From Anaerolineales bacterium (GTDB lineage Bacteria; Chloroflexota; Anaerolineae; Anaerolineales; DRMV01), in the NCBI GenBank assembly GCA_027053355.1, contig JALUDX010000195.1:846-64845 (forward strand): 64,000 nucleotides of DNA, given 5' to 3'. Below, in pieces: positions 10,437-36,519 of this stretch. Within the stretch, counting starts at the first letter, position 1, and each line of letters starts with the position of its first letter. Under the pieces are notes generated by a model. That model did not search any database. It was not told the DNA's origin and saw only the letters and a program-made list of their open reading frames with translations. The translations under genes and the position numbers were made by a program.

Positions 10437-11363
10437 ATGCCCACTCGCCACGCGGTAAGCATCAGCCTGGGTAGCGCCAAGCGCGACAAAAAGGTGCGCG
10501 TGCAGTTCGGCGACACCACCGTGATCATCGAACGCATCGGCACCGACGGCGACGTCGAGGCCGCCAAGCGCCTCTACCGCTCATTGGATGGCAAAGTCGA
10601 CGCCTTCGGCATGGGCGGAGTAGATCTGTACATCCGGGTGGACGACCACAAATACCCGCTGCGCGCCGCGCACCGGCTCATCGAAGGGGTGAGCAAAACC
10701 CCGGTGGTGGACGGGCAAGGCCTCAAACACACGTTAGAGCGTCGCGTCTTCTCCCTGGTGCGGCCGCAACTGCGCGCGCCGTTGCACTTTCGCCGCGCCT
10801 TTATGCCCTTAGCGCTCGACCGGGTAGGGCTGGCGCGCGCGGTCGACGAAATCGCAGACGACGTCGTGTTCGGCGACTTCATGGTCGGGTTGGGGCTGCC
10901 CATTCCGGTGCGCGGGCTGACCACGTACATCCGCTTACTCAAACGCTTCTTGCCGCTGGTGGGTTTCTTCCCCCTCAGTATGCTGTTCTACGGCAGCGAC
11001 GGCGTCGAATTCCAGCCCAAATACGAAAAATACTGGGCGCAAGCGGACTTGATTGCTTGCGATTTCATGTTCATGAAAAAATACATGCCGCCGCACCTGC
11101 TCGAAGGCAAGACCTTGGTCACCAACACCACCACCGAGAGCAACGCCGCCTTTTTGCGCGCCCACGGCGTGCACCTGCTCATCACCACCACCCCCCGCTA
11201 CGACGGTCGTTCGTTCGGCACCAACATGATGGAAGCCGCGCTCACCGCGTACGCGGGCAAAGGCCGTCCCCTGACCCTCGAGGAACTCAACGCGCTGATC
11301 GACGAACTGGATCTTCGCCCCACGGCCACTTACCTGCAAGAGGAATCCGCACCGTCCGTCTAA
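10437..11363 (+). CDS. conserved protein of the family often annotated quinate 5-dehydrogenase (function unverified)
   Basis: Start at MPTRHAVSISLGSAKRD. The pattern SISLGS.KRD...IERIGTDGD...LDGKVDAFGMGG.DL matches that family as recalled. No Rossmann motif seen. Confidence 0.45.
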   Translation: MPTRHAVSISLGSAKRDKKVRVQFGDTTVIIERIGTDGDVEAAKRLYRSLDGKVDAFGMGGVDLYIRVDDHKYPLRAAHRLIEGVSKTPVVDGQGLKHTLERRVFSLVRPQLRAPLHFRRAFMPLALDRVGLARAVDEIADDVVFGDFMVGLGLPIPVRGLTTYIRLLKRFLPLVGFFPLSMLFYGSDGVEFQPKYEKYWAQADLIACDFMFMKKYMPPHLLEGKTLVTNTTTESNAAFLRAHGVHLLITTTPRYDGRSFGTNMMEAALTAYAGKGRPLTLEELNALIDELDLRPTATYLQEESAPSV

Positions 11364-14300: not shown

Positions 14301-15013
14301 GGCATACTGCCGCCATCGCCCCACGCGCCGGGGAAGGTGCGCACCGTGATCACCTGACGGTGTTGCAAATCGAAGACCACCACGTCCAGATCCGCGCCCT
14401 TTTTCCCCACCAAGGCGACGAAATGGTCATGGATGTCTATGTTGCCTTCGCCGGGCCCCAACGCCACCCGGTCATAGCCGGTCAGGCGCCCCAAGACGTC
14501 GTAAGCGCCGGTGACGACGTCGTAGGTCTGAATGGTGCCATCGTCACGGAAACTGTAAAGCAGGTGCGGGTCGGTATTCGCCCAAACCGTGGGGTAGACA
14601 TCGCCCGGCAGCCAGCGCACCCGTTGGTGGGTCTGAGCATCGTAAATGGCCACCGAATAAAAGCGATACAGCGTGCCGTCTGCGTTCCAGGGCTGAATTT
14701 TGGCGTATTCGTGGTGGGGATACCATTCCGCCTCTGCATCGTAAGCGGTGATGCGCTGGAGGATAGTTTGGGTGGAAGGGTCTTCCACAAAGCCGCGCAA
14801 GGACGGCAAGGCCGGGGCAGAGGCTACGATGCGTTGGTAAGTGGTGTCTTTGGGATAACCGGGGAACGCGCCCTGCCCCCAACGGGGGGCGGGCGGGGGC
14901 ACCGCGGCCCGCGCTCGCGGCGCAGCCGCGCCCCAGGCCGCGGCCAGCACCACCCCCGCGAGCAGCAAACTCAGCCCCTGATGAAGCAGACGTCGCCAAC
15001 GCACAAGGCACAC
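11372..15013 (-). CDS. very large secreted SLH-domain surface protein
   Basis: 1213 aa with a signal peptide (LLLAGVVLAAAWGAAAPRARA). N-terminal beta-propeller-like region, an unassigned roughly 550-aa middle region, a DNDHDGWVDFPYDPDC Ca-binding-like motif, and three C-terminal SLH repeats (FPDV..W...YV/WIE....G...GYPDGTY.P...VTRAE.A..L.R). Confidence 0.8.
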   Translation of the reverse strand: MCLVRWRRLLHQGLSLLLAGVVLAAAWGAAAPRARAAVPPPAPRWGQGAFPGYPKDTTYQRIVASAPALPSLRGFVEDPSTQTILQRITAYDAEAEWYPHHEYAKIQPWNADGTLYRFYSVAIYDAQTHQRVRWLPGDVYPTVWANTDPHLLYSFRDDGTIQTYDVVTGAYDVLGRLTGYDRVALGPGEGNIDIHDHFVALVGKKGADLDVVVFDLQHRQVITVRTFPGAWGDGGSMPEHVDWVSVSQSGRYVVINWNSGPPWNVQPFDGHYGVEAYRTTDMAFLRRLVRYGNHGDLCFTPAGGEVYVQFWGENGTINAYHLDRDQADVIHTADDFGVGDAHLSCRNILRPGWAYVSTDPDRGGLILAVKLDGSQTVEYFGHHFSSAANYLKSPMPVPSPDGRRVMFKSDFGAAADADVVYDFEASASDAQRLYDDVTIDIFTNQAGDPSFTATRSDGQVLREAFQGERFWEDHSDGALSLSYSLEEAPAGVNVVYTITNPSDAPQPLPDLYVDGLTYAAHDEQDTLQILATGSYPYLHLRSLSEDTFQDGQGNFRGWGYFEVNGEDDFPYPSAYAPVIVAHDGHFAAGSALLVDYPHTGLQPRMRVWYWQGHWSHVYDFGVGNQTLPPGATLTLTLTLRFAPPRAWLLTLYPYRAFFDGLYGGQRQITPRDLRPISGLNLSYSTVAYEQYQACLNAGDCEEGSEPDEQTVLAWNLRGHNWALRTDKYGLDGPNPDHDNRGFVSTYVQRLREAGYSRAMLWGFSGQFWKCPPEAVVPGEHPYCDTNLPPQFMSDLLSPVANSLDALAQFGEQGIDLGFWWGRAGQVPQPRQWNPDAVPPLDPNDADDTAFADQELALAVARGAHALGLDAFPNMAPLQQLPWLAHLKAQAPDVALWVEGAMSDYLHTRAALFLQPDNPWSSGRWTGTPLTAPPLLMQYLNPGAAVIAYRNGYTPTAEELQQMVHWGYTPLLVAAPDIFDTPLTDVHSTAGVTLAACFDGQDNDHDGWVDFPYDPDCLSAAGESEGPSPYPTFPDVPTDDWAWPYVESLVAEGVTSGYPDGLYHPQDQVTRAQSAVFLLRAIHGGDYAPPPAAGNTFPDVVGHWAADWIEEAADEGLVHGYPDGTYRPEAPVSRAEVAVLLLRSLHGPDYTPPAAAAYSFSDIAGHWAADWIEQLHWEGAASGYPDGTYHPDASLTRAEMAALLVRYFGYRLPE

Positions 15014-15020
15014 TCCTTTT

Positions 15021-17435
15021 TCACGGCAAACCCAGCACCCGAACCAGCAGCGCCGACATTTCGGCGCGCGTCACGGCCTGGTAGGGGCGGAAGGTGCCGT
15101 CCCCGTAGCCGGTGACAAAGCCTTCCTGGTGCAGGGCTTCGATCCAGTCCGCACCCCAGTAGTTCGCGATGTCCGAGAAACTGTACGCACTCACGTGGGG
15201 CGGCGTATAGTCTGCGCCGTGCTCTGCCCGCAGCAGGAACACCGCCAGTTCACCGCGGCTCAGGCTCGCGTCGGGGCGATAGGTGCCGTCGGGGTAGCCC
15301 AAGGTGATGCCGTCGTTGCGCAGCGCGGCGATCCAATCTTCAGCCCAGTGGCCGGCCGTATCGGGGAACGCGGGCTCCACATCAGGTGGTGTGAAGGATT
15401 GGGGATAGTGCATGGCCCGTTCCAAAATGGCTGCGGCCTCGCCGCGCTTGATGCCCTGGTCGGGGTGGAAGGTGCCGTCGGGATAGCCTTCTACCACGCC
15501 GTCGGCCCACACGCTGCCAATCCAGGGGAAGGCCCAGTGTTCCACCGGCACGTCGGAGAAGGGCAAAAAGACCACGGTCTGCAGGCCGTCTTCTTCCACC
15601 CCCACGAAGAGATAGCCGGCGCGGCGGGCAATGGCCACAGCCCGCCCCGCGGTGGGGAAATAGCCAACTTCGACGGGCGCGGCGGGGTCTGAAATATCCA
15701 TCGCCCACACGCCGCCCTCGCCCGCGGCCAGGTAGGCATAATGCCCCGCCACGGTGAGCGCCCGCGCCTCGCCCAAGGTGGCCGCGGAGCCCGCAAAACC
15801 CGGGTGTTGCGGGTCGCTGACGTTCAGCACCTGCAGGCCGTCGCTGCCATCGGCTACAAAGGCATAATCGCCCACCACCACCGTTTGCCAGGCCCAGCCG
15901 TCGGTGTCGTAGGCGCCGATTTCCTGGGGGTGGGCAGGGTCGGAGACGTCGACGATGTGCACCCCGGCCTCTCCGGCGCTCAGGTACACCAAGTTCCCCA
16001 CCACGGTGACGCCCACCACGTCGCCAGGGGCCTCCAAGGCACCCACTTCGATGGGGGAAGCGGGGTTGCTGAAGTCTACCACCCGCAGACCGCCGCCCGC
16101 GCCCGCGGCCACGTAGACCAAAGCATCCTGAACGGCCACTGCCCGTACCCACCCCGGCGCGTCGTAGAACCCCAATGCCTGGGGCGCATCGGGGTGGCTG
16201 ACGTCCACGGCCCATACGCCCTTGCCGTCGGCCACGTAAACCCGGCCCTCGCCGGCCGCGGTCACGCCCAGCCCCCGCCATGGCTGCGTGACACTGCCTT
16301 CGGCCACGAAGCGGTTGGGCGGGTGGAACGAAAGCACCCGCAGGCCGGGCGAATTGTCGGTCAGGTAAAGGTAATTGCCCGCCACGGCCAGGCCCATCCC
16401 CGCGCCCAGGCTGGGCAGCACGCCCACCCGTTGCGGCGCGGTGGGGTTGGTCGCATCGACGATCTGCAGGCCCTCGTCCCATTCCGCCAGGTAAACCGTG
16501 TGCCCTTGTGCGGCCACGGCTGCCGCGAAGTCGGGCAGGTCGAGGGTGCTGCGCAGGGAGGGGCGGGCGGGGTCGTGGACGTCGAAAATGCGCAGGCCGT
16601 CGAAAGAATCGGCCACGTAGGCGTAGCCATCGACCAAAACCACCCGCTGCGCCCAAGCCGTACCGCCGGTGGAGGCCACGGCCTGAGGGTGAGCGGGGTC
16701 GCTGATGTCGATCACTCGGAAGACGTCCGCATCCAAAACAAAAGCATAGGGCGACGCCAAGGCCAAATCTTCCACCCAGCCGGGGGTGTCGTAAATGGCC
16801 AAAAGGCGCGGGGCCGTGGGATTGCTCACGTCGACCACCACCACGCCGACGTCGCCCGCGGCGACGTAAACCGTCTGTCCGTCCACCGCCACGTGGGCCG
16901 CGTTGGGGATGCCCATGGTCGCCAGCCGCTGCGGCTGGCTGGGGTTGCTGACATCGACCACGCCCAGGCCAAAGTTGGGGCCGACCACGTAGGCTTTGTC
17001 GCCGGCCACGGCCACGCCGGTGGTCAGGCCCGTGGTGGTGTCGCGGCCCAAGGGGGTCAGCGTATCGCCCTGCCGCAGGAGCACTTGCAGCCCGGCTGCG
17101 CCCAGCGCGGCGTAGACGTGGTCGCCGCTAATGGCCAGGTCTTTGACCACTCCGGCCAGCCGCGGGGAACGCCCCACCACCTGGGGTGCGGCAGGGTCGG
17201 CAGCGTCGACTACCAAAATTTGCGCGCCCATGCCCAAAAGAATGCGGCCGTCGGCCCACACGATGGCTTCAGAATCTCCGCCCGTGTGCGCCACCGACTG
17301 GATGTGTTCGCCGCCGCTTGCTTCGGCCTGGGCACGGGGCGCCTGCGATGCCCGCGCGGCGGTCCCCCGACTGCCCCAAACCAAAGCCAACATGAGAAGA
17401 AGAAAACACCAAGGGAGATGTTTGCGCTGCATCAT
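15021..17435 (-). CDS. secreted LVIVD-repeat beta-propeller protein with three C-terminal SLH domains
   Basis: Signal peptide, then more than 10 repeats of the type AYVA....GL.V.DVS.P..P, and three SLH repeats at the C-terminus. ATG at 17435 or 17432 preferred over the TTG at 17444 (GGAGG just upstream). Confidence 0.8.
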   Translation of the reverse strand: MMQRKHLPWCFLLLMLALVWGSRGTAARASQAPRAQAEASGGEHIQSVAHTGGDSEAIVWADGRILLGMGAQILVVDAADPAAPQVVGRSPRLAGVVKDLAISGDHVYAALGAAGLQVLLRQGDTLTPLGRDTTTGLTTGVAVAGDKAYVVGPNFGLGVVDVSNPSQPQRLATMGIPNAAHVAVDGQTVYVAAGDVGVVVVDVSNPTAPRLLAIYDTPGWVEDLALASPYAFVLDADVFRVIDISDPAHPQAVASTGGTAWAQRVVLVDGYAYVADSFDGLRIFDVHDPARPSLRSTLDLPDFAAAVAAQGHTVYLAEWDEGLQIVDATNPTAPQRVGVLPSLGAGMGLAVAGNYLYLTDNSPGLRVLSFHPPNRFVAEGSVTQPWRGLGVTAAGEGRVYVADGKGVWAVDVSHPDAPQALGFYDAPGWVRAVAVQDALVYVAAGAGGGLRVVDFSNPASPIEVGALEAPGDVVGVTVVGNLVYLSAGEAGVHIVDVSDPAHPQEIGAYDTDGWAWQTVVVGDYAFVADGSDGLQVLNVSDPQHPGFAGSAATLGEARALTVAGHYAYLAAGEGGVWAMDISDPAAPVEVGYFPTAGRAVAIARRAGYLFVGVEEDGLQTVVFLPFSDVPVEHWAFPWIGSVWADGVVEGYPDGTFHPDQGIKRGEAAAILERAMHYPQSFTPPDVEPAFPDTAGHWAEDWIAALRNDGITLGYPDGTYRPDASLSRGELAVFLLRAEHGADYTPPHVSAYSFSDIANYWGADWIEALHQEGFVTGYGDGTFRPYQAVTRAEMSALLVRVLGLP

Positions 17436-17500
17436 GGCCTCCAAACAGAAAAGTGCCTACTGCAGGGGCGAGTTGCGAATTGCGAGTTGCGAATTAGGAG

Positions 17501-18109: not shown

Positions 18110-19168
18110 TTACGGCACCGGCACCACCGCGTCGTAATTGTAAAACCAGTTGTACGCGTAATACGGCGTCACCAGGCTCTGCAAACGAATGGCAATGCGC
18201 TGTTGATTGGCCAACGCCGGCGGGATGGAGAACTTGGTCTCTTTCAGGTGCCCCTGGTCATCGGTCTCGACCGTGGCCACCTGCCAACCGCCCACGCCGT
18301 AAGTGCCGTAATAATTCATCAGCACCGCGTATTTGTCGTTGGGCGGGAAGTTGTGCCCCTTGATGACCACGAAATCGTTGCGCTCCACCTGGGCGATGAA
18401 GAAATAAGGATACCCCGGCGGGCCTACGACCGGCGTTGCGCCACCGCTTCCGCCGCTGCCGGTGGTGTTGTTGTAAAACCAGTTATAGGCGTAATAATGG
18501 GTGGTGGGGCTTTCCAAACGGATGGCAATCCGATACTGCCCTGCCAACGCCGAAGGAATGGAAAACGTGGTCTGACTCAAAGCGCCGTTAGCGTCGGTGG
18601 TCACCGTCGCCACCTCCCAACCGCCAATGCCATAGGTGCCGTAGTAATTCATCCGCACCACGTAAGTGTCGTTGGGCGGGAAATTGTGCGGCGCGATGGT
18701 TACCTCCTGATCCTGCTTTACCGAGGCGATCGAAAAAGTGGGATAGCCCACGTATCCGCTCCCTCCGCTGCCGCCAGCGGCCACGTTGTAAAACCAGTTG
18801 TAGGCATAGTAACCGCTGGTGGGGCTTTCGAGGCGGATGGCGACGCGCGACAAATGCGCCCAAATCGGGGGGATGTTGAAGGTCGTGCTGCTCAAATGAC
18901 CTTGCGCGTCCGTGGTCACCGTGGTGACGTAACAGCCGCCAATGCCATAAGTGCCGTAAGGCCCCATGTAGACGTTGAACGTGTCGTTAGGGGGGAAGTT
19001 ATACGGCTGAATGGACACCGTATTGCCCGGATCAACGGACGTGATGGTGAAACACGGGTAACCGCAATAGGCGGCAACAGCCGAATGGATGAAAAAGCCG
19101 CTGCTCAACACCAGGGCCAACACCAGCATCACCACCCACAGTTTGGAAAAACGAACCGAGCGTTGCAT
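18110..19168 (-). CDS. secreted protein made of three tandem ~105-110-aa repeats (unknown family)
   Basis: Signal peptide and strong RBS AGGAGG. Each repeat carries YP.F.I..V......I....NFPPND.....M..YGTYG.GG..V.TV.TD..G.L....F.IP......RIAIRL.S.....YAYNWFYN, separated by G/S linkers. Confidence 0.75.
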   Translation of the reverse strand: MQRSVRFSKLWVVMLVLALVLSSGFFIHSAVAAYCGYPCFTITSVDPGNTVSIQPYNFPPNDTFNVYMGPYGTYGIGGCYVTTVTTDAQGHLSSTTFNIPPIWAHLSRVAIRLESPTSGYYAYNWFYNVAAGGSGGSGYVGYPTFSIASVKQDQEVTIAPHNFPPNDTYVVRMNYYGTYGIGGWEVATVTTDANGALSQTTFSIPSALAGQYRIAIRLESPTTHYYAYNWFYNNTTGSGGSGGATPVVGPPGYPYFFIAQVERNDFVVIKGHNFPPNDKYAVLMNYYGTYGVGGWQVATVETDDQGHLKETKFSIPPALANQQRIAIRLQSLVTPYYAYNWFYNYDAVVPVP

Positions 19169-20756: not shown

Positions 20757-20785
20757 TTGACGCAGCCGACCGATACAAGTATAAT
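20757..20785 (+). promoter_or_regulatory. sigma-70-type promoter TTGACG-17 nt-TATAAT
   Basis: -35 at 20757..20762 and -10 at 20780..20785 with an exact 17-nt spacer, 62 nt upstream of the DUF4388 gene ATG. Confidence 0.6.
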
Positions 20786-20847: not shown

Positions 20848-21666
20848 ATGGCGCTCAAAGGCAATCTCCGCGATTTCTCGATCACCCAGTTGCTCAACCT
20901 CATCAACCTGGCCCACAAAACTGGCCTACTCCGCATTCGCGGCCCCAAAAGCGAAGCAGCGGCTTATTTTCGGCAAGGCAAACTGGCTTACGCCGCTCTG
21001 AGCGATCAACCTAACGACCTGGCTTCGCTGCTTTATCGGGAGAAAAAACTGACCGCCGGACAATACCGCGCCATCCGCGCTCACCACCAGCGGCTTTCCG
21101 ATACGGCGCTGGGCTTGTTGCTGGTCAACGCCGGCTACTTCACCCAAGGGGAAATTTTAGCCGTGGTGCAGAGCGCCTATGTAGACGTCATCAAGCGCCT
21201 GTTCACATGGGTCGATGGTCACTTTGAATTTCATAGCAATGCACCGTTCCCCAAGGGGCGTATCCCCACTCGCGTGAGCCTGGAAAATCTAATCATTGAG
21301 GGCAGCCGCCAAATGCGGGAATGGGAACTGCTGCAAAACGAAATTCCCGATTTGGACATGGCCCTCAAATTCGCCGACCGCCCTGACGTCAACCTCAAAC
21401 ACCTCAACCTGAGCGTGGAAGAGTGGCGGGTAGTCTCTTACATCAACCCCAAAAACACCATCCGCCAAATTGCCCGCGCCACTAAGATGAACGACTTAGA
21501 AATCCGGCGCATTGTTTACGGCCTGCTGCAAGCGGGCCTGGTAGAACTGGTGCGACCAGCCAACAAATCGATGCCCAAGCCCATCCACACGGCATTAGAA
21601 GGCAAAACTAAAGAAGACCAACGCTCCCTGGTCAATCGGCTGATTGCCCGCATCCGCGGCTTGTGA
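20848..21666 (+). CDS. DUF4388 (PATAN-like) domain protein
   Basis: N-terminus MALKGNLRDFSITQLLNLINLAHKTGLLRI...AAYFRQGKLAYA matches the recalled DUF4388 signature. The C-terminal region looks winged-helix-like. Confidence 0.7.
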   Translation: MALKGNLRDFSITQLLNLINLAHKTGLLRIRGPKSEAAAYFRQGKLAYAALSDQPNDLASLLYREKKLTAGQYRAIRAHHQRLSDTALGLLLVNAGYFTQGEILAVVQSAYVDVIKRLFTWVDGHFEFHSNAPFPKGRIPTRVSLENLIIEGSRQMREWELLQNEIPDLDMALKFADRPDVNLKHLNLSVEEWRVVSYINPKNTIRQIARATKMNDLEIRRIVYGLLQAGLVELVRPANKSMPKPIHTALEGKTKEDQRSLVNRLIARIRGL

Positions 21667-21677
21667 TCATTCCCTAC

Positions 21678-21816
21678 GTAACTGTTCGACCTCAAAGAGA
21701 AACTACGAATAACGCAGACAGAAAACCATGTTAACTCCTTAGCGCCCTAAACTCCGCGTCTATCCGTCATCATCCGCGCTCATCCGCGGGCTGTGTTCCA
21801 AAGTTTGAACATTTAC
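21678..21816 (+). mobile_element. short type-B MITE-like element (139 bp)
   Basis: Ends GTAACTGTTCGACC / GTTTGAACATTTAC. The interior matches both arms of type B with the central part missing. No TSD detectable. Confidence 0.65.
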
Positions 21817-21850
21817 CCCCATTCGCGCTTTTATCGAGAAGGAAGGCTCC

Positions 21851-22384
21851 ATGCAAACCGTCAAAATCGTGGTCACTGGCCCCTTCAGCGCCGGAAAAAC
21901 AGCATTCATTCAGACCGTGAGTGAAATCGACGTGGTCGAAACCGAACGCAAAATCACCAACGAGTCGGAAAAAATCAAAGAGACGACCACGGTGGCCATG
22001 GATTTTGGCCGCATTACCATTGATGAAGACCTGGTGCTCTACCTTTTCGGCACACCCGGCCAGCGCCGCTTTGACTTCATGTGGGAAATCCTTTCCGAGG
22101 GAATGTTAGGGTTCATCGTACTGGTAGACAGCACCCGCCCGGAGACTTTCCGCGAAGCGCGGCGAATTTTAGAAACCTTCCGCGCCTACGCCCCCACCCC
22201 TTATGTGGTTGCAGCCAACAAACAAGACCTGCCCGAAGCATGGGAACCGGAAGACATGCGTATCGCTCTGCGGCTTTCGCCGCGGGTCAAACTGCTCCCC
22301 TGCGTGGCCACCGACAAAGAATCGGTCAAAAAAGTGCTGCTGGAACTGCTGTACAGCATTTTGGAAGAAATCAACCACGATTGA
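21851..22384 (+). CDS. small Ras-like GTPase (COG2229 / MglA-CvnD-like ATP/GTP-binding protein)
   Basis: 177 aa with G1 GPFSAGKT, G3 FGTPGQ and G4 NKQD. Confidence 0.8.
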   Translation: MQTVKIVVTGPFSAGKTAFIQTVSEIDVVETERKITNESEKIKETTTVAMDFGRITIDEDLVLYLFGTPGQRRFDFMWEILSEGMLGFIVLVDSTRPETFREARRILETFRAYAPTPYVVAANKQDLPEAWEPEDMRIALRLSPRVKLLPCVATDKESVKKVLLELLYSILEEINHD

Positions 22385-22509
22385 AGTAAAAACTAGCCGG
22401 GGGCACGCACGCATCAAAGTAATGCAATCTCCCCAGCAGCAGTGCTCCCGTGGCGCCTGTGCGCCATCTTTTGCGTCTTTGTGCTAACTTTGAAGTTTGA
22501 GGCATCATT

Positions 22510-23343
22510 GTGTCGTCTATCACCACAGACCAAGGCGTTGTCCATTATGAAGTCTTCGGCCATGGCCAGCCCGTGATTTTGCTCCATGGGTGGTTAGGCT
22601 CATGGGGTGTGTGGCAAGAGACCATGGCTCAATTGGGGAAATACTACCGAACCTACGCTTTGGATTTCTGGGGGTTCGGCGAATCAGGCAAAAAGCGCGA
22701 TTCTTACGACGTTGCCGATTTTGTGGGACTGGTTGAGCAATTTATGGAGCAATTGGGCATCGTGCGCGCGCCGCTGGTTGGGCATAGCATGGGCGGCACA
22801 GTCGCCCTAAGTGTAGCCATTCAATATCCCCAACGGGTAAGCAAAGTGGTGGTCATCGGCTCGCCCATTGTGGGCTCTTCACTCTCATGGCCGTTGAAAC
22901 TGGCCGGTTACCGACCGATTGCCTTTTTGGTATATCATCAGATGACGCTGCTGCGTTTAGGGATCCGCTTGTTTTCTTCTTTAGTGACCAGTGACCCTCG
23001 CTGGCCTGAAATGATGGATCGCGACCTCTCGCAGGTTACCCTGGAATCATTTCTCCACAGCATTGCTTCATTACGGCGCACTGATCTGCGCCCCTTTTTG
23101 CCGGAAATTCAAGTGCCCGTGTTGGGAATGTATGGCGAGAAAGACGTCATCGTCCACCCCGACCAATGGATGTATCTCAAACAAGGCGTGCCCCACGCGC
23201 AGATCAGCCGTTATGCTGCAGCCGGGCATTTCATCATGTTAGACCAGCCTAAAGCGTTCATCCAGCGGCTGCACACTTTTCTGGCCACAACGCCCACCTT
23301 ACCCCTGACGGGTTTAGGTCAAACGACAACACAGGGAGCATGA
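22510..23343 (+). CDS. alpha/beta hydrolase (H1, intact catalytic triad)
   Basis: 277 aa, GTG start. LLHGW oxyanion region, nucleophile elbow GHSMGG (Ser93), and later GEKD and AAGHF. Confidence 0.8.
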   Translation: MSSITTDQGVVHYEVFGHGQPVILLHGWLGSWGVWQETMAQLGKYYRTYALDFWGFGESGKKRDSYDVADFVGLVEQFMEQLGIVRAPLVGHSMGGTVALSVAIQYPQRVSKVVVIGSPIVGSSLSWPLKLAGYRPIAFLVYHQMTLLRLGIRLFSSLVTSDPRWPEMMDRDLSQVTLESFLHSIASLRRTDLRPFLPEIQVPVLGMYGEKDVIVHPDQWMYLKQGVPHAQISRYAAAGHFIMLDQPKAFIQRLHTFLATTPTLPLTGLGQTTTQGA

Positions 23344-23918
23344 AACCACCCACGGAGCACGAAGCACCCCCTGAGGTAGCGCTGTTCATGCCGCCGCTGC
23401 AGCCCCAAGATGCGCTACCTCAGGCCTGGGCGGCGGCATGGCGAGAACTCTTCGGTGCGCGCACCGCTCCCCTGGCCGCGCAAGGCGAAGCATTGCAACC
23501 GTGGCTGTGCGCGAACTACGGCCCCCGCGGGGGCCAAGGCCTGGCCTGGCGTTTCGGCCGGGCCTTGGCCCGGCACTGGTGGCCTTCGTTAGCCACGTCT
23601 GCCAGTTTGCACACCCCCACCTTTGGGCTACAACCGCGCGGGCAACGGGTGATAGAAGGACTACGCCGCCTGGCAAGGCAGGCCGCGCCGGCGTTACAAA
23701 GCCCGGTATGGGTCGATACCGACGCCACAGCAGTGTATTGGCGCTGGCGGCGCTGCGCCTTTGGCCTTGGTTGCCCCTTCAACCCAGACCACTCCCCCCC
23801 CTGCGCACCCTGGTTCGGCTTCCTGCAAGAAAGCGTCTATCGCCTGAGCGGCGGGCGATGGATCACACCCCAACCTGTGCCGGGCCAGCAGGCCATTACC
23901 CTGCCCCTGCAGTGGTAA
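23340..23918 (+). CDS. hypothetical Trp/Arg/Pro-rich protein (weak V4R-like C-terminus?)
   Basis: 192 aa, with ATGA coupling to H1. The C-terminal CAPWFGFLQESVYRLSGG faintly recalls V4R small-molecule-binding domains. No firm family. Confidence 0.4.
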   Translation: MKPPTEHEAPPEVALFMPPLQPQDALPQAWAAAWRELFGARTAPLAAQGEALQPWLCANYGPRGGQGLAWRFGRALARHWWPSLATSASLHTPTFGLQPRGQRVIEGLRRLARQAAPALQSPVWVDTDATAVYWRWRRCAFGLGCPFNPDHSPPCAPWFGFLQESVYRLSGGRWITPQPVPGQQAITLPLQW

Positions 23919-23939: not shown

Positions 23940-25223
23940 ATGCTCAAAATTATTTTGCATGACGACCGGCATATCTTGCCATTCAATGAGCCAGCCCGCG
24001 ACCTGCGCATCCAAAACAAACCCCTTTGGCTGGCGCAGCGCGACGTGCTGAGCCCTTACGTCAGCCGCGAGATGGAAATCCCCTGGGGGCAACCTCTCCC
24101 GCCGGTGCAAGAGGAGACCGTCGTCTATCGCGATAACCTCTTTTTCGACCAACACTACATCGAGGCATTTTTGCAAGCCGCGCGGCAACGGGGGCGACCG
24201 GTACAGGCTGCTTTCTCCGCGCACGACCCGGCTTTTCGCGAACACGCGCTGCCGCTCTCCATTTCTTATACCCCTTACGATGACCTCTACCTGGCCGACT
24301 TGTGGTATTACCCCCACGGCACGGCTACCGATACACCGCCTGAACCCCTGGTGCTCGACTTGCAAGCGCGAGAAATCGGATACTACCACGTGCCAACTTA
24401 CATGGCCACTCAACAGGGCGATTTGGTCTTCCAAGTGCCGTTGCGGGCGCTGATTGCCATCGATAGTTGGGTGCACATTTTCGTGGCCGACGTCATTTTT
24501 GGCCTCTTTGCCCGCGGTGCGCGTTTCGAAGAGCGACTAAACCGCGACCCCTGGTTCAAACTGCGCATTTTGGGGCGCGCAATGTACGAAGGCCGACAAG
24601 TGCTCGCTGCTTCCCCCTTAGTGCGGGTCGGGCGCAACGTGGTCATCGACCCCACCGCAGTCATCCACGGCCCCACGGTCATCGGCGACAACGTGACCAT
24701 TGGGGCCGGCGCGGTGATCGACAATGCCATCATCGGCGACAACGTCAACATCTCGCAAGGTGTGCAGGTTTTGCTTTCGGTAGTTGGCGATGGCGCGTTC
24801 CTGCCTTTCCGTGCGGCGTTGTTTATGACCACCCTGATGGACAACAGCATGGTGGCACAAAACACGTGTTTGCAAATGTGCGTCGTGGGCCGCAACACGT
24901 TCATCGGCGCGGGTACTACTTTCACCGACTTCAACCTGATTTCTGCCCCCATCAAGGCGCGCGATGGCCGCGGCATTTTACGCGACGCCAACCGGCCCGT
25001 GTTGGGCGGCTGTGTGGGGCACAATTGTCGCTTAGGGTCAGGGCTGATCATCTACCCCGCCCGAACCATCGAATCAGACGTGGTGCTGGCCGCTTCGCCC
25101 GAACGGCGGGTGATCATGAAAGACGTGCGCTACGAAGATAGCGACCACCATCACCTGCGCGGCGGGCATCGCCACCCTCGCTTATACCCCCGCCCCGGCG
25201 AACGCAACAACCTTTCGTGGTAG
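23940..25223 (+). CDS. GlmU-like putative sugar nucleotidyltransferase/acyltransferase with left-handed beta-helix
   Basis: 427 aa. N-terminus MLKIILHDDRHILPF...RDLRI resembles the putative sugar nucleotidyl transferase family as recalled. The C-terminal half has hexapeptide repeats (VIHGPTVIGDNVTIGAGAVIDNAIIGDNVNISQGV). Confidence 0.5.
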   Translation: MLKIILHDDRHILPFNEPARDLRIQNKPLWLAQRDVLSPYVSREMEIPWGQPLPPVQEETVVYRDNLFFDQHYIEAFLQAARQRGRPVQAAFSAHDPAFREHALPLSISYTPYDDLYLADLWYYPHGTATDTPPEPLVLDLQAREIGYYHVPTYMATQQGDLVFQVPLRALIAIDSWVHIFVADVIFGLFARGARFEERLNRDPWFKLRILGRAMYEGRQVLAASPLVRVGRNVVIDPTAVIHGPTVIGDNVTIGAGAVIDNAIIGDNVNISQGVQVLLSVVGDGAFLPFRAALFMTTLMDNSMVAQNTCLQMCVVGRNTFIGAGTTFTDFNLISAPIKARDGRGILRDANRPVLGGCVGHNCRLGSGLIIYPARTIESDVVLAASPERRVIMKDVRYEDSDHHHLRGGHRHPRLYPRPGERNNLSW

Positions 25224-25293: not shown

Positions 25294-26391
25294 ATGGACA
25301 CGTTTGCCTTTATCATTCACCCCATCCATCCCAAACGCGACGTCAGCCGCAAGTTTCCGCTGCTGGGGCGCATTCTCAGCGAGCGGCAGATCGATTTCTT
25401 TTCCGCCTTTTTCCCGCCAGTGTACATTTCTGAAATTACCGGCATCGTCTCCGCGGCCAGCGGCAAAGAAATCAAAGGCTGGTTCGTGGCCTGCCCCCTG
25501 ACCCCGCGGCGGATGCTGGAACTGCCCGAATGGTGGGTCTACCGCAAAATCATCCAAACGGGGCGGCTGGCCGAGCGTCTGGGGGCGCAAATGCTCGGGT
25601 TGGGGGCGTTCACTTCGGTGGTCGGCGACGGCGGGGTGACGGTGGCGCGGGCGTTGGATGTGCCGGTCACCACCGGCGACGCGTACACCGTGGCCGTAGC
25701 CGTAGAGGCGCTGGAAGAAGCCGCCCGCCAGATGGGCTTGACGCCCTCTCAGACTACGGCGGCGGTGTTAGGCGCGACGGGCGCGATTGGACGGGCTGCG
25801 GCTGCGCTCCTCGCGCGGCGGGTAGGTGAGGTATACTTAATTGGTCGGCAACGCCAGGCTTTAGAAGCCCTACAGCCGGAAATTCGCCAGCGCGGCGGGC
25901 AGGCTCGGCTGCGTATCAGCACCGACCCCGCCGACCTGCGCCACGCGCAACTCATCCTCACGGTCACCAGCGCGTTAGATGCCGTGGTCGAACCGCAACA
26001 CCTGCAGCCGGGCAGCGTGGTGTGCGATGTGGCCCGACCGCGCGACGTCTCGGCCCAGGTGGCTGCCGTGCGCGACGACGTGCTGGTCATCGATGGCGGC
26101 ATGGTGGAAGTGCCAGGGCCGGTAGATTTTCATTTTGATTTCGGCTTTCCCCCTGGCAAGGCCTACGCGTGCATGGCCGAAACCATGGTGCTGGCCTTAG
26201 AAGGACGTTTCGAGGACTATACCGTGGGCAAGCAGTTCCCTTTAGCCAAAGTCGAAGAAATCGCCCGCCTGGCCCAAAAACACGGTTTTCGGCTTAGCGG
26301 TTTTCGCTCGTTCGAAAAACCGGTCAGCGCGGCGCACATTGCCCGGGTGCGCGAGCGGGCACAACAACGCACCACCGGGAGAAGGAGGTAA
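25294..26391 (+). CDS. acyl-ACP reductase-like (AAR / COG5322) NAD(P)-dependent enzyme
   Basis: 365 aa, colinear by eye with cyanobacterial AAR as recalled. Matches are GLGAFTSV vs GGFTSI, TTGDAYTV vs TTGNTHTA, VLGATGAIG vs VVGATGDIG, and YACMAETMVLALEG vs FACFAEAMLLEFEG (catalytic Cys position kept). Confidence 0.6.
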   Translation: MDTFAFIIHPIHPKRDVSRKFPLLGRILSERQIDFFSAFFPPVYISEITGIVSAASGKEIKGWFVACPLTPRRMLELPEWWVYRKIIQTGRLAERLGAQMLGLGAFTSVVGDGGVTVARALDVPVTTGDAYTVAVAVEALEEAARQMGLTPSQTTAAVLGATGAIGRAAAALLARRVGEVYLIGRQRQALEALQPEIRQRGGQARLRISTDPADLRHAQLILTVTSALDAVVEPQHLQPGSVVCDVARPRDVSAQVAAVRDDVLVIDGGMVEVPGPVDFHFDFGFPPGKAYACMAETMVLALEGRFEDYTVGKQFPLAKVEEIARLAQKHGFRLSGFRSFEKPVSAAHIARVRERAQQRTTGRRR

Positions 26392-26394
26392 CCC

Positions 26395-27285
26395 ATGAGC
26401 CAAGCCCGTATCTTGGTAGTCGAGGACGACATCGACATCGCCAACATGCTCAAAATTTATTTCAGCAGCCAAGGCTATGATGTGGATGTAGCCACCCGGG
26501 GCGCCGAGGCCTTAGACAAAACCCGTCAACGCATGCCCCACCTCATCGTGTTAGACATCATGCTCCCCGACATCGATGGCTACGAAGTCTGCCGCCGTCT
26601 GCGCACAAGCACCCGCACCAGCCACATTCCGGTAATCTTTTTGACCCAAAAAGACGAACGCAGCGACCGCTTGCAAGGGCTGGAACTGGGCGCAGACGAT
26701 TACATCACCAAACCCTTCGACATCGAAGAACTACGGCTGCGGGTGCAAAACGCCATTCGCCGGGCAGAACGGGAAAGCCTCACCGACCCGCGCTCTGGCC
26801 TGCCGGCCGGCCGACTGATCGAAGAGCAACTGCGCCGCATCATCCGAGAGCGCGACTGGGCTTTGATGGATATCCGCATCAACCACTACGACGCGTTCCG
26901 CGAAGTGTATGGCTTCGTCGCAGCCAACGACGTCCTTCGCTTCACCGCCATGCTGCTCAACGAAATCATCGACGAAGTCGGCAACCCTGACGATTTCCTC
27001 GGCCACCCCGGCGACGAAAACTTTGTGGTGATCACCACCGAAAAAGCCGCACCGGCCATCCGTGCCCGCCTAAAAGAACGCTTTTCCCAAGAGGTCAAAA
27101 GCCATTACAACTTTCTGGATCGAGAGCAAGGTTACATCCTTTTAGAAGAAGACGGCGTAACCTACAGCGTACCTTTGATGACCGTGTCGGTGGGCATTGT
27201 GTCACCCTCACAGTACCAATTCGCAGACATTCGAGAAATTACCGAACTGGCTGCGGAAGCCCGCCGCAAGGACGCGGGCGAGTAA
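26395..27285 (+). CDS. response regulator: REC domain plus degenerate GGDEF domain
   Basis: REC with DD..., phospho-acceptor D in LIVLDIMLPD, and K in YITKPF. The C-terminal GGDEF-like fold starts TDPRSGLPAGR, with the signature GGDEF replaced by PGDEN. Confidence 0.75.
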   Translation: MSQARILVVEDDIDIANMLKIYFSSQGYDVDVATRGAEALDKTRQRMPHLIVLDIMLPDIDGYEVCRRLRTSTRTSHIPVIFLTQKDERSDRLQGLELGADDYITKPFDIEELRLRVQNAIRRAERESLTDPRSGLPAGRLIEEQLRRIIRERDWALMDIRINHYDAFREVYGFVAANDVLRFTAMLLNEIIDEVGNPDDFLGHPGDENFVVITTEKAAPAIRARLKERFSQEVKSHYNFLDREQGYILLEEDGVTYSVPLMTVSVGIVSPSQYQFADIREITELAAEARRKDAGE

Positions 27286-34410: not shown

Positions 34411-34779
34411 ATGGCTAAAATCGTGATTGCAGAGGATGAACGGGACATCCGTGAACTCATCACTTTCACCCTGCAGTTCGCCGGGCATCAGGTAATCGCC
34501 ACAGCCAATGGCGCAGAAGCCGTGGCTGCTGTGGAACGGGAACGCCCTGATATCGTGCTGTTAGACGTTCGGATGCCCAAAATGAGCGGCTACGAAGCCT
34601 GCCGCGCCCTGAAAAGTAACGAGAAAACCCACGACATCCCGGTAGTTTTTCTCTCAGCCAAAGGCCAAGAGGCCGAAGTGCAAGAAGGGCTGAAAGCCGG
34701 GGCTAAAGCGTATATTCTGAAACCCTTTGCCCCCGACGAATTGATCGCTCAAGTGGAAGCCATTTTGCACGCCGACTGA
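34411..34779 (+). CDS. single-domain CheY-like response regulator
   Basis: 122 aa with EDE, LLDVRMPKMSG and ILKPF. Starts 3 nt after the kinase stop. Confidence 0.9.
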   Translation: MAKIVIAEDERDIRELITFTLQFAGHQVIATANGAEAVAAVERERPDIVLLDVRMPKMSGYEACRALKSNEKTHDIPVVFLSAKGQEAEVQEGLKAGAKAYILKPFAPDELIAQVEAILHAD

Positions 34780-34870
34780 TGAACGCGCTACATCGCGTCC
34801 CCTCGTCGGCAGGGCAGGCTTGCGTTTCCCTTCAGGCAGCGTCACGGCAAGCCGGAGGACGATCAATATC

Positions 34871-35659
34871 ATGAGCGCGATCATTCTGCGAGATCACATC
34901 GTTCACTACGAAGTTTTGGGCCGCGGCCGACCGGTGCTCTTTCTGCACGGCTGGGTCGGCTCTTGGCGCTATTGGGTGCCGGCAATGCAACAAGTGTCGC
35001 AACAACACCGCGCTTACGCTCTGGATCTGTGGGGCTTTGGCGATAGCGACAAGCACCCACCGCTCTATACTTTAGAAGCCCAGGTGCAGTTGCTGACGTC
35101 CTTTTTAGACCGCATGGGCATCGGCCGGGTAGCGCTGGTAGGCCACGGCCTGGGCGCGGTGGTTGGGCTGCATTTTAGTCTCCAATACCCTCTGATCGTC
35201 GATCGGATGTTGTTGGTAGCCATGCCCAGTGAGGCCGACGCGCTGCACCCCCGCCTGCGCGCCGACTCGCCCGAAAAACTGGCCGCCTGGCTGCTCAAAC
35301 CGACCATCTCCACCGAACCGGCCCGCGCCGAAGCCCCCAAAGCCGACCCTCTGGCCTTGCGCAGCACGGTAGAGCCTTTGCAAAGCCTAGATTTGATGTC
35401 CCAAGTCGCCAAGGTGGAAATGGCCTGCCTGCTGGTCCATGGCCGCAACGACCCCCTGGTACGCTTACCGTCGGATCTCGCGCTGGCCCAATGGCCAGAA
35501 AACATCCATCAGATTATTTTCGAGCAGTCGGGACACTTCCCCATGTTGGATGAACCCAGCAAATTCAACCGGCTGTTGGCCGACTTTCTTCACCTGCCTT
35601 CAGGAACCGGCCCCCAACAACTGCAACTCAAAGAAGAATGGAAACGCCGCGTCCGCTAA
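34871..35659 (+). CDS. alpha/beta-hydrolase-fold protein (H2), paralog of H1 with Ser-to-Gly at the nucleophile
   Basis: Start at MSAIILRD. Colinear with H1 (HYEV.G.G.PV..LHGW.GSW..W...M.Q....YALD.WGFG.S.K), but the nucleophile elbow reads GHGLGA, with codon GGC at 35147..35149. Asp (GRND) and His (SGHF) are retained. Confidence 0.75.
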   Translation: MSAIILRDHIVHYEVLGRGRPVLFLHGWVGSWRYWVPAMQQVSQQHRAYALDLWGFGDSDKHPPLYTLEAQVQLLTSFLDRMGIGRVALVGHGLGAVVGLHFSLQYPLIVDRMLLVAMPSEADALHPRLRADSPEKLAAWLLKPTISTEPARAEAPKADPLALRSTVEPLQSLDLMSQVAKVEMACLLVHGRNDPLVRLPSDLALAQWPENIHQIIFEQSGHFPMLDEPSKFNRLLADFLHLPSGTGPQQLQLKEEWKRRVR

Positions 35660-36519
35660 ACCCTGCCCAGCGCGCGCTCGCCCTGCTGCCTCGCGGGCTT
35701 GGCCTGGGGGTCGCGGTGTTGTGGGGGGTACTGTTTGCCCCTCGCGCGGCGCAGGCCGCGCGCCTGCCCGCGGAAAACACCCCCACCCCACCGGCCAAAA
35801 CGTGTATGCAGCAGGGCGGGCAAATTCGCTCCGCACAACTGCCCGCGCCTACGCTCTCGCGGCCGATGCCCGTGTTTGTCTACCTGCCGCCATGTTACGA
35901 CCAGCGCGCACCCGAACGCTACCCCGTGCTCTACCTGATCCACGGCCAAAACTTCAATGCCCGCCAGTGGATCAGGTTGGGCGCGCCCCAAGTTGCCGAC
36001 CGGCTGATCGCCCACGGCGAAGCCCCACCCTTCATCATCGTGATGCCTGGCGAGTGGCGCTGGGCGCCCCCTGCAGAAACCGGCTGGGATGAGGCTTTTC
36101 TACAAGTGCTCATGCCTTGGGTAGACCGAACCTTCCGCACTCGCGCCGAGCGGCGCTACCGCGCGGTGGGCGGCCTTTCTCGCGGCGCGTCCTGGGCCAT
36201 TCACTTTGGCCTCTCACGCTGGGATCTGTTCGGCAGCGTGGGCGGCCACAGCCCGCCAGTGTTTTGGGGCGACGCCCCCTACGTGCGCCACTGGCTGGCA
36301 GACATCCCCCAAGGCCGCTGGCCGCGCATCTACTTGGACATCGGAGACATGGATCAACACAGCATCATGGAATCCGCCCAATGGTTCGAAAACCTGCTCA
36401 CCCAGCGCGACATCCCCCACGAGTGGCACCTCAACGTAGGCTTACACAACGAAGCCTACTGGCATGCCCATGTCGAAGCCTACCTGCGCTGGTACACCGC
36501 AGCCTGGCAAACACCCTGA
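35638..36519 (+). CDS. secreted esterase-family (PF00756-like) alpha/beta hydrolase
   Basis: Signal-like N-terminus, YPVLYLIHGQ, and nucleophile GLSRGA. The start is uncertain; it overlaps the H2 end by 22 nt. Confidence 0.65.
   Translation: METPRPLNPAQRALALLPRGLGLGVAVLWGVLFAPRAAQAARLPAENTPTPPAKTCMQQGGQIRSAQLPAPTLSRPMPVFVYLPPCYDQRAPERYPVLYLIHGQNFNARQWIRLGAPQVADRLIAHGEAPPFIIVMPGEWRWAPPAETGWDEAFLQVLMPWVDRTFRTRAERRYRAVGGLSRGASWAIHFGLSRWDLFGSVGGHSPPVFWGDAPYVRHWLADIPQGRWPRIYLDIGDMDQHSIMESAQWFENLLTQRDIPHEWHLNVGLHNEAYWHAHVEAYLRWYTAAWQTP

Follow-up and report, generated by a model that had tools for sequence, protein, structure and literature searches.

The gene described here lies on the forward strand of a 64,000-nucleotide stretch of DNA (hereafter the window) from an Anaerolineales bacterium of the phylum Chloroflexota (contig JALUDX010000195.1, assembly GCA_027053355.1). 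It encodes a 365-residue protein that a preliminary description, made from the sequence alone, had likened to the acyl-ACP reductase (AAR; ACP, acyl carrier protein) of cyanobacteria, in a setting that lacks the usual partner of that enzyme, the aldehyde-deformylating oxygenase (ADO). Our analysis places this protein, referred to below as the reductase, in the superfamily that comprises AAR, the thioester-reductase domain of PigE (PigE-TR) and the TAD domain of nonribosomal peptide synthetases (NRPS). Its active-site residues are conserved, its gene belongs to an operon retained across the class Anaerolineae, and its relatives in other lineages are fused to, or encoded beside, a protein of about 300 residues that we term X300. 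Our preferred reading, to which we assign a probability of about 0.5, is that the reductase is an active NAD(P)H- and Cys-dependent enzyme converting acyl thioesters to aldehydes, and that a lipid-like product is made together with the LbH protein and the α/β-hydrolases of the same operon and is tied to a phosphorelay. From the sequence comparisons, the chemistry itself, a Cys- and NAD(P)H-dependent reduction of a thioester, appears well supported. The class of substrate, the fate of the product, a functional link of the enzyme with its LbH, hydrolase and signalling neighbours, and the cooperation with X300 are what we infer from the evidence laid out below.

Placement of the reductase in its superfamily

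The open reading frame (ORF) of the reductase begins with MDTFAFIIHP and also contains GLGAFTSVVGD, PVTTGDAYTV, GATGAIG and AYACMAETMVLALEG, so that every motif quoted in the preliminary description (FIIHP, GAFTSV, TTGDAYTV, GATGAIG and a Cys-bearing sequence) is indeed present. The colinearity with cyanobacterial AAR that had been seen by eye is reproduced by a phmmer search of PDB sequences, in which residues 11-333 of the reductase align with residues 11-335 of the Synechococcus elongatus enzyme (6jzq/6jzu; E=2.8e-28), and the two proteins share 28.8% of identity over 347 residues in BLASTP (E=8e-34). Judged by these alignments, the homology extends over the whole length and is far beyond chance, and the three-part architecture of the reductase, with its N-terminal, Rossmann and C-terminal domains, is homologous over the full length to that of solved superfamily members. 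No second reductase and no LbH paralogue was found in the window.

The description of the protein as an AAR-like enzyme, however, stands only at the level of the superfamily. The NCBIfam equivalog model of AAR, TIGR04058, gives the reductase 113.8 bits, far from the curated cutoff of 449.7, and PigE-type proteins are closer to it. The best match in PDB is PigE (4ppm; E=2.9e-38), and the NCBIfam model of PigE, NF053554, matches residues 4-359 through positions 2-360 of its 837, with a score of 217.6 bits. The reductase is no PigE equivalog either: the cutoff of that model is 850, and an Aminotran_3 domain was found neither in the protein nor in the window.

Several members of the superfamily have been described in other bacteria. 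At its N-terminus, PigE bears a thioester-reductase domain homologous to AAR, in which Cys296 is equivalent to Cys294 of AAR (PMC8341465). In KecF, a COG5322 reductase domain is joined to an aminotransferase (PMC6498172), TamH is a reductase-aminotransferase protein similar to KecF (PMC9594044), and the TAD domain of NRPS shares the fold and the Cys with the superfamily (bioRxiv 10.1101/2024.10.28.620694). With PigE, KecF, TamH and the TAD described, the earlier statement that the COG5322 family is essentially uncharacterised outside cyanobacteria has to be withdrawn; our literature search returned nothing on COG5322 in Chloroflexi. PigE, the best-scoring characterised relative, resembles the reductase in its three-part fold, its Cys296 and the motif CMAET[IM]VLALE. 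In PigE, TamH and KecF, however, the domain is fused to a class-III aminotransferase that turns the aldehyde into an amine within a secondary-metabolite cluster, whereas the reductase of the window is a stand-alone protein and its gene block has no aminotransferase but an LbH protein and a phosphorelay. The TAD (carmabin CarI; PDB 9E4S/9E4U/9E4X) is a more distant member (E ~1e-4) that shares the Cys beside the nicotinamide and the Thr-Thr-Gly motif. It forms the C-terminal domain of NRPS modules, owes its NAD specificity to an Asp in the way of the 2'-phosphate, and is a proposed amide former. Unlike the TAD, the window reductase stands alone and has Arg185 at a position typical of NADPH binders. 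The haloarchaeal FcrA ('alternative fatty acyl-CoA reductase') was considered as a relative and rejected, being related to HMG-CoA reductase and lying outside the AAR superfamily.

An exhaustive search of cluster representatives at 50% identity recovered 943 clusters at E<=1e-30. Half of the best 150 of these clusters are stand-alone proteins of 300-450 residues. Fusions among the same 150 join the reductase domain to a class-III aminotransferase, to an aminotransferase and an AMP-binding enzyme, to GNAT/FemAB and an aminotransferase, or to PilZ and START domains. The commonest fusion, detected in at least 24 of the 150 by a single-sequence search, carries about 300 N-terminal residues without any Pfam match. 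The reductase is 37-42% identical to the aminotransferase-fused domains, 41-47% to those of the latter fusions of about 700 residues, and 29% to AAR. By these comparisons it is not an AAR orthologue and is nearer to the thioester-reductase domains of the PigE/TamH/KecF type. Within the thioester-reductase superfamily, only some members of which are characterised, it forms a clade of its own whose set of partners is new and strictly conserved. The top 120 homologues, all of about 365 residues and from Anaerolineae and Chloroflexota metagenome-assembled genomes, are 68-96% identical to it, and the top 120 matches of the LbH protein are 71-99% identical. Such very high identity suggests strong purifying selection on both proteins.

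The names attached to the top 120 homologues include 'shikimate dehydrogenase', 'predicted amino acid dehydrogenase' and 'fatty aldehyde-generating acyl-ACP reductase'. A shikimate/quinate dehydrogenase, as several NCBI orthologue names have it, or a glutamyl-tRNA reductase might also be suggested by the sole Pfam match of the protein, to the Rossmann-type NAD-binding family Shikimate_DH (PF01488; 33 bits, residues 144-261), and by a match to the HemA model TIGR01035 (39.7 bits). Both matches, however, are confined to the NAD(P)-binding Rossmann domain, whereas AAR and PigE align over residues 4-359. The HemA match covers residues 129-261 only and lies far below its cutoff of 209.55, and the reductase has neither a Shikimate_dh_N domain nor an AroE NCBIfam match. 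An AroE or HemA identity was thus rejected, and either enzyme appears scarcely credible to us. The preliminary description had raised a clustering with dehydrogenases of the shikimate or glutamyl-tRNA reductase type as a point to be checked; what we find of such similarity is restricted to the Rossmann domain (residues ~130-261) and far below the cutoffs. Thousands of orthologues are now labelled 'shikimate dehydrogenase', 'amino acid dehydrogenase' or 'acyl-ACP reductase', and because none of the current labels is supported for this clade, the annotation should become AAR/PigE-type thioester reductase.

Active-site residues and ADO-docking positions

Functional residues were mapped on a MAFFT alignment of the window reductase with 120 close homologues and 69 distant stand-alone homologues. 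In AAR, Cys294 forms the acyl-enzyme, the loop 162-GATGDIG-168 is among the functional elements, R189, R193 and R314 make up the 2'-phosphate pocket, Tyr247 and His7 serve the tunnel and the packing of the domains, Met21, Met279, Tyr23 and Tyr26 belong to the tunnel, and R73, R79, K80 and R118 dock ADO (PMC7089970). The preliminary description had put a Cys of the reductase at the catalytic position and had named the homology of this residue as a point to be checked. In both the HMMER and the MAFFT alignments Cys293, within ACMAETM, pairs with Cys294 of AAR, and the match of ayACMAETMVLALEG over mfACFAEAMLLEFEG therefore identifies it as the equivalent of the catalytic residue. Cys293 is kept in all 120 close homologues and in 61 of the 69 distant ones. 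The loop GATGDIG of AAR corresponds to GATGAIG at residues 160-166, with invariant Gly positions and the form GATG[AS]IG among homologues, and His7 corresponds to His9 (119/120 close homologues). In the TTG motif at residues 126-128, which is part of TTGDAYTV, T126 and G128 do not vary among sequences of 39-96% identity. A Thr-Thr-Gly motif positions the Cys in the TAD structure (bioRxiv 10.1101/2024.10.28.620694). Glu296 is conserved among homologues as well. Since Cys293, the NAD(P) loop, the TTG motif and His9 are all intact, the reductase appears catalytically competent.

The 2'-phosphate pocket is retained in part. R189 of AAR corresponds to R185 (116 of the 120 close homologues) and R314 to K313 (119/120); R193 is replaced by A189, and Ala is found there in 85 of the 120. 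With two of the three 2'-phosphate positions of AAR filled, the site looks compatible with NADPH, and because Arg185 and Lys313 occupy these two positions we take NADPH as the likely cofactor. The likeness to AAR extends over about 330 collinear residues and includes the Cys, the Gly-rich loop, His7, Arg189 and, as Lys in the reductase, Arg314; a ping-pong mechanism through an acyl-enzyme, as in AAR, would be expected. By contrast, the ADO partner, R73 and R118, Tyr247 and the Met279 segment are features of AAR only, and the reductase is found in Chloroflexota in a different operon.

Two of the positions at which AAR docks its oxygenase differ as well. R73 is replaced by Pro78 (Pro in 111/120) and R118 by Asp122 (Asp or Glu in 114/120). 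The MAFFT alignment preserves R79 and K80; HMMER aligns the region differently, and for this disagreement the assignment of single docking residues is approximate. As far as the alignments tell, the docking surface of AAR is not conserved in the reductase. The reported lack of an ADO gene in the window is also confirmed: with an ADO query, tblastn found nothing better than E=1.4 over 22 residues, which is chance level, and Pfam scans of about 45 ORFs, essentially all sizeable ones of the window, detected no PF11266 (Ald_deCOase), no Aminotran_3 and no aldehyde dehydrogenase. It could be argued that the protein is nonetheless a genuine AAR for alkane biosynthesis with its ADO encoded elsewhere in the genome, as it has full-length homology and the catalytic Cys and as JGI labels some orthologues 'fatty aldehyde-generating acyl-ACP reductase'. 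We consider this very unlikely, given the TIGR04058 score and the 29% identity reported above, the replacement of R73 and R118 by Pro and Asp/Glu throughout the clade, the lack of ADO in 64 kb and a set of conserved partners that is entirely different.

The gene block in Anaerolineae and its signalling partners

Conservation of the neighbourhood was surveyed with one genome per GTDB species, and the best 80 loci were kept, all of the Anaerolineae type and with reductases 61-73% identical to that of the window. Flanks of 10 kb were fetched, and the tallies of neighbours (Table 1) count only loci with enough flank; some distant representatives of the reductase lie on contigs too short to inform on neighbours. 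The genes are co-directional and follow the order PatA_N/DUF4388 protein, small GTPase, α/β-hydrolase, V4R-like protein, LbH protein, reductase, REC-GGDEF regulator and multi-GAF kinase, and downstream of the kinase the block continues with a single REC protein and a second α/β-hydrolase. The same order is found on three long contigs with differing flanking genes. The LbH protein and the response regulator, which the preliminary description had listed as the neighbours of the reductase and which lie on its 5' and 3' sides respectively, are thus not incidental but belong to a block that is conserved at essentially every Anaerolineae locus we examined.

Table 1. Features of the window discussed in the text. 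Counts are loci of the survey in which the neighbour is present over loci with enough flank.
Feature	Coordinates	Strand	Evidence or conservation
X300, 308 aa, unlinked, 14 kb 5' of the reductase gene	10437..11363	+	43% identical to the neighbour at locus L092, E=2e-73
Candidate sigma-70-like promoter, TTGACG-17-TATAAT, 11/12 consensus	20757..20785	+	63 bp 5' of the PatA_N gene
PatA_N / DUF4388 protein, first gene of the upstream module	20848..21666	+	45/55
Small Ras/Arf/ATP_bind_1-type GTPase, three genes 5' of the LbH gene	21851..22384	+	51/63
First α/β-hydrolase	22510..23343	+	53/65
V4R-like protein, 192 aa	23340..23918	+	31/70 at E<=1e-8; sequence divergent
LbH protein, 427 aa	23940..25223	+	75/76, 5' of the reductase
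Stand-alone thioester reductase, AAR / PigE-TR / TAD superfamily, 365 aa, ATG start	25294..26391	+	homology searches and alignments
Response regulator, REC and degenerate GGDEF-like domain	26395..27285	+	72/74, 3' of the reductase
Giant sensor histidine kinase, 2318 aa	27451..34407	+	67/68
Single-domain response regulator (REC only)	34411..34779	+	53/56
Second α/β-hydrolase	34820..35659	+	50/55
Esterase-family protein (PF00756), overlapping the end of the second α/β-hydrolase gene	35638..36519	+	outside the 10-kb survey flanks

The core of the block is tightly packed. Across the loci the median gap between the LbH stop and the reductase start is only about 3 bp; the 70-bp spacer of the window is unusual, and the regulator gene of the window begins 4 bp past the reductase stop codon. 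The triad of LbH protein, reductase and regulator is kept even at a locus with identities to the window proteins of only 47% for the reductase, against 56% for the LbH protein and 70% for the REC domain of the regulator, the last over the 107 residues available on the contig. The upstream module (PatA_N, GTPase, hydrolase and V4R-like genes; 20848-23918) precedes the core in about 80% of loci and is missing at some amply flanked ones, such as L024, L033, L063 and L070. A promoter-like site in front of this module (Table 1) is only a candidate for the block, because such sites are no commoner in the region than in shuffled sequence.

The LbH protein is named for its C-terminal left-handed beta-helix, built from hexapeptide repeats. 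This protein, the orthologue of which in the cultured Anaerolinea thermophila UNI-1 is BAJ62709.1, shows Pfam matches to Hexapep, LbH_EIF2B and Hexapep_GlmU on residues ~225-385. AlphaFold models it poorly as a whole (pLDDT 57), with confidence limited to the N-terminal ~140 residues (pLDDT ~90). With this usable part, Foldseek detects a nucleotidyltransferase fold with matches to ST0452, RmlA, CobY and GMPPA/B, and the whole protein, as far as a low-confidence model allows, resembles the nucleotidyltransferase-plus-LbH architecture of ST0452, GlmU and GMPPA/B. The N-terminal domain (window 23940-24600) has the consensus IILQxxRxIxPFNEPARDLRIQNKPLWL and no GxGTR; as this signature is gone, the domain looks degenerate, as in eIF2B gamma/epsilon and GMPPA. 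In the response regulator the REC domain is normal and the GGDEF motif reads GDENF in the window and GGDNF in most of 79 orthologues, suggesting that this domain is probably not an active diguanylate cyclase. The kinase comprises about 10 GAF domains, one PAS domain, HisKA and HATPase_c. The V4R-like protein has no Pfam match itself and none in PDB, and is homologous to orthologues annotated as V4R (E=2e-13 to the protein of locus L003). Our literature search found nothing on DUF4388 with a GTPase.

These partners bring up another explanation, namely that the reductase is mainly a regulator or sensor, which binds acyl-ACP or acyl-CoA or is acylated by it on Cys293, binds NAD(P)H and, with the pseudo-enzyme-like LbH protein, passes the metabolic state on to the kinase, the regulator or the GTPase, so that the aldehyde is not the main output. 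The gene does lie between signalling genes in essentially every locus, the regulator is the best-conserved neighbour, as seen at the locus with the 47% identical reductase, the LbH protein resembles the regulatory pseudo-enzymes named above, and the GGDEF domain of the regulator is likewise degenerate. Yet the catalytic set of Cys, NAD(P) loop, TTG motif and His9 is invariant, as in an active enzyme, the family is elsewhere fused to bona fide enzymes, and there is no precedent known in the superfamily for such a function. We therefore regard a sensor role as decidedly unlikely and favour an active enzyme.

Several other features of the surroundings were observed. Directly 5' of the conserved block lies an IS4-type DDE transposase gene (PF01609; 19595-20704, + strand), and the G+C content falls to 0.53-0.56 at 18-22 kb, a region that includes the transposase, against ~0.63 elsewhere. 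A 352-residue protein with a signal-peptide-like N-terminus and no Pfam family is encoded at 18110-19168 (- strand) and contains three internal repeats of about 110 residues (…YGTYGIGG…IAIRLES…YYAYNWFYN…). Two very large S-layer-homology (SLH) proteins (11372-15013 and 15021-17444, both on the - strand), one of them with seven LVIVD repeats, suggest that this Chloroflexota genome encodes a surface layer anchored through SLH.

X300, lipid clusters and the proposed function

In stand-alone relatives of the reductase from other lineages (37-54% identity) the gene adjoins that of X300, a Pfam-less protein of about 300 residues, sometimes with START-type lipid-binding proteins or a class-III aminotransferase nearby. 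X300 is homologous to the N-terminal part of the ~700-residue reductase fusions (E down to 1e-73). Because the neighbour in one set of genomes is homologous to the fusion N-terminus in another, X300 and the reductase form a gene-fusion (Rosetta-stone) pair. The hydrolase, the V4R-like protein and the LbH protein of the block were also considered as the source of this N-terminal part and showed no similarity to it. The window contains its own X300 gene (Table 1). The family has more than 7,200 matches, the top ones being 61-84% identical besides one identical copy from the contig of the window itself; the named top matches come from Anaerolineae-type genomes, and NCBI sometimes calls X300 'quinate 5-dehydrogenase'. 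No Pfam, NCBIfam or PDB sequence match was found for X300. Its AlphaFold model is confident (pLDDT 89, pTM 0.87), and Foldseek against PDB gives weak generic two-domain α/β matches with TM scores of 0.3-0.5, the best (0.53) being the AAR-fold TAD domain. The family has no invariant Cys. In contrast to the other lineages, where X300 and the reductase are fused or adjacent, they are separate genes in Anaerolineae, with the reductase in the LbH/phosphorelay context: X300 occurs within 10 kb of the reductase in just 1 of the 80 Anaerolineae loci and is otherwise found in the company of housekeeping genes, holA, obg and cysS being examples.

The neighbours of the fusions give an indication of substrate. 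At locus L090 (GCA_016199465.1) the fusion is accompanied by a phasin, a PhaR-like protein, two patatin lipases, SCP2, an Fe-alcohol dehydrogenase (Fe-ADH), an SDR and a DAGAT-type acyltransferase. Among 80 metagenomic fusion loci, most of them short, we counted PhaR-like proteins at 10, Fe-ADH at 9, phasin and SDR at 6 each, DAGAT-type acyltransferase at 4 and two patatin types at 3 each. Such lipid genes are also seen at L098, L118, L124, L148-L150 and L163, among other fusion loci. This composition fits a route from acyl thioester through aldehyde and alcohol to ester and supports lipid-type substrates for the fusion branch, whose clusters could represent an unrecognised alcohol-forming route to wax esters or neutral lipids. 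The extension of a lipid-type substrate from this branch to the Anaerolineae clade would be by analogy.

On this basis we propose the following scheme for the reductase. By analogy with the mechanism of AAR and from the conserved residues, a thioester carrier (acyl-ACP or acyl-CoA) would pass its acyl group to Cys293 and depart, NAD(P)H would bind at the GATGAIG loop, and hydride transfer would free the aldehyde. Unlike in the characterised relatives, the aldehyde would go neither to ADO nor to a fused aminotransferase. In Anaerolineae the reductase is probably translationally coupled to the degenerate-nucleotidyltransferase/LbH protein, and its transcript probably also carries the genes of two or three α/β-hydrolases and of a phosphorelay that comprises the REC/degenerate-GGDEF regulator, the kinase with about 10 GAF domains and the REC protein. 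Its most likely role would be to supply an aldehyde- or alcohol-derived and probably lipid-like compound, which the neighbouring enzymes may further acylate or hydrolyse and the synthesis of which may be governed by, or reported to, the signalling system. The reductase probably also works with the unlinked X300.

Several observations weigh against this proposal. Shared descent, more than functional coupling, could account for part of the co-conservation of the block in this one class, even though the genes around it vary. The LbH protein may have no catalytic activity: its nucleotidyltransferase signature is lost, some of its LbH matches are to regulatory families, and its model is poor. The Pfam scans of the window detected no ACP, acyl-CoA ligase, alcohol dehydrogenase, wax synthase or aminotransferase, so that the pathway before and after the reductase is not visible there. 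The neutral-lipid context is confined to the fusion branch and to a minority of mostly short loci, and our literature search found nothing on ether, wax or alcohol lipids of Anaerolinea. Finally, the acyl pocket, as aligned, is unlike that of AAR: Tyr247 is replaced by Arg248 in 120 of 120 close homologues, and the Met279 segment is deleted in the reductase and in all of them, which suggests that the pocket may differ and that something other than a plain long-chain fatty acyl group could be the substrate.

It is thus conceivable that the reductase acts on a non-fatty thioester, that is, a functionalised, charged, short acyl, aminoacyl or peptidyl group, as does PigE with 3-acetyloctanoyl or as the TAD does, and that the LbH protein acylates the product or a derived amine or sugar to give a specialised metabolite or an envelope component instead of a lipid. 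The closer relationship to PigE-type domains than to AAR would agree with such a substrate, as would the invariant Arg248 in place of the tunnel Tyr247 of AAR and of a Leu in PigE, the loss of the Met279 segment, and the GlmU/ST0452-like architecture of the LbH protein, which is typical of sugar-phosphate enzymes. However, the same Arg, in the motif DVARP[RP]D, is also present in the X300-reductase fusions of neutral-lipid clusters, the block has no carrier protein, adenylation enzyme or aminotransferase, and the nucleotidyltransferase signature of the LbH protein is degenerate. We consider a non-fatty substrate rather unlikely and retain the lipid-like product as our preferred reading. A more speculative view would join the two contexts, with X300 and the reductase forming a new two-component or fused acyl-thioester reductase system and the Anaerolineae reductase being the enzymatic arm of a signalling module; this combined view we hold only tentatively and think it improbable as a whole.

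Anaerolineae are a very abundant and poorly studied class, prominent in sludge, sediments and hot springs. The reductase gene is among the most conserved in this class, the cultured A. thermophila UNI-1 carries the block, and a fixed block with a giant multi-GAF kinase points to a core physiological module that has not been studied. The fusion and adjacency with X300 provide a concrete and testable partner for the non-cyanobacterial family. This link may uncover a new reductase system that makes aldehydes or alcohols, which would be of interest to lipid biology and to the production of aldehydes, alcohols and amines by biocatalysis. If the more speculative view above is correct, X300 and the reductase would represent a widespread further type of fatty-acyl reductase beside FarA, AcrB/Acr1, FcrA and AAR, at work in other phyla in clusters for neutral lipids or wax esters. 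In Anaerolineae the reductase would have been recruited, with a pseudo-nucleotidyltransferase/LbH protein, into a class-wide module of GAF kinase, degenerate GGDEF protein and small GTPase, in which a molecule derived from a lipid aldehyde would be the signal or the controlled output, and the system would govern envelope or filament physiology.

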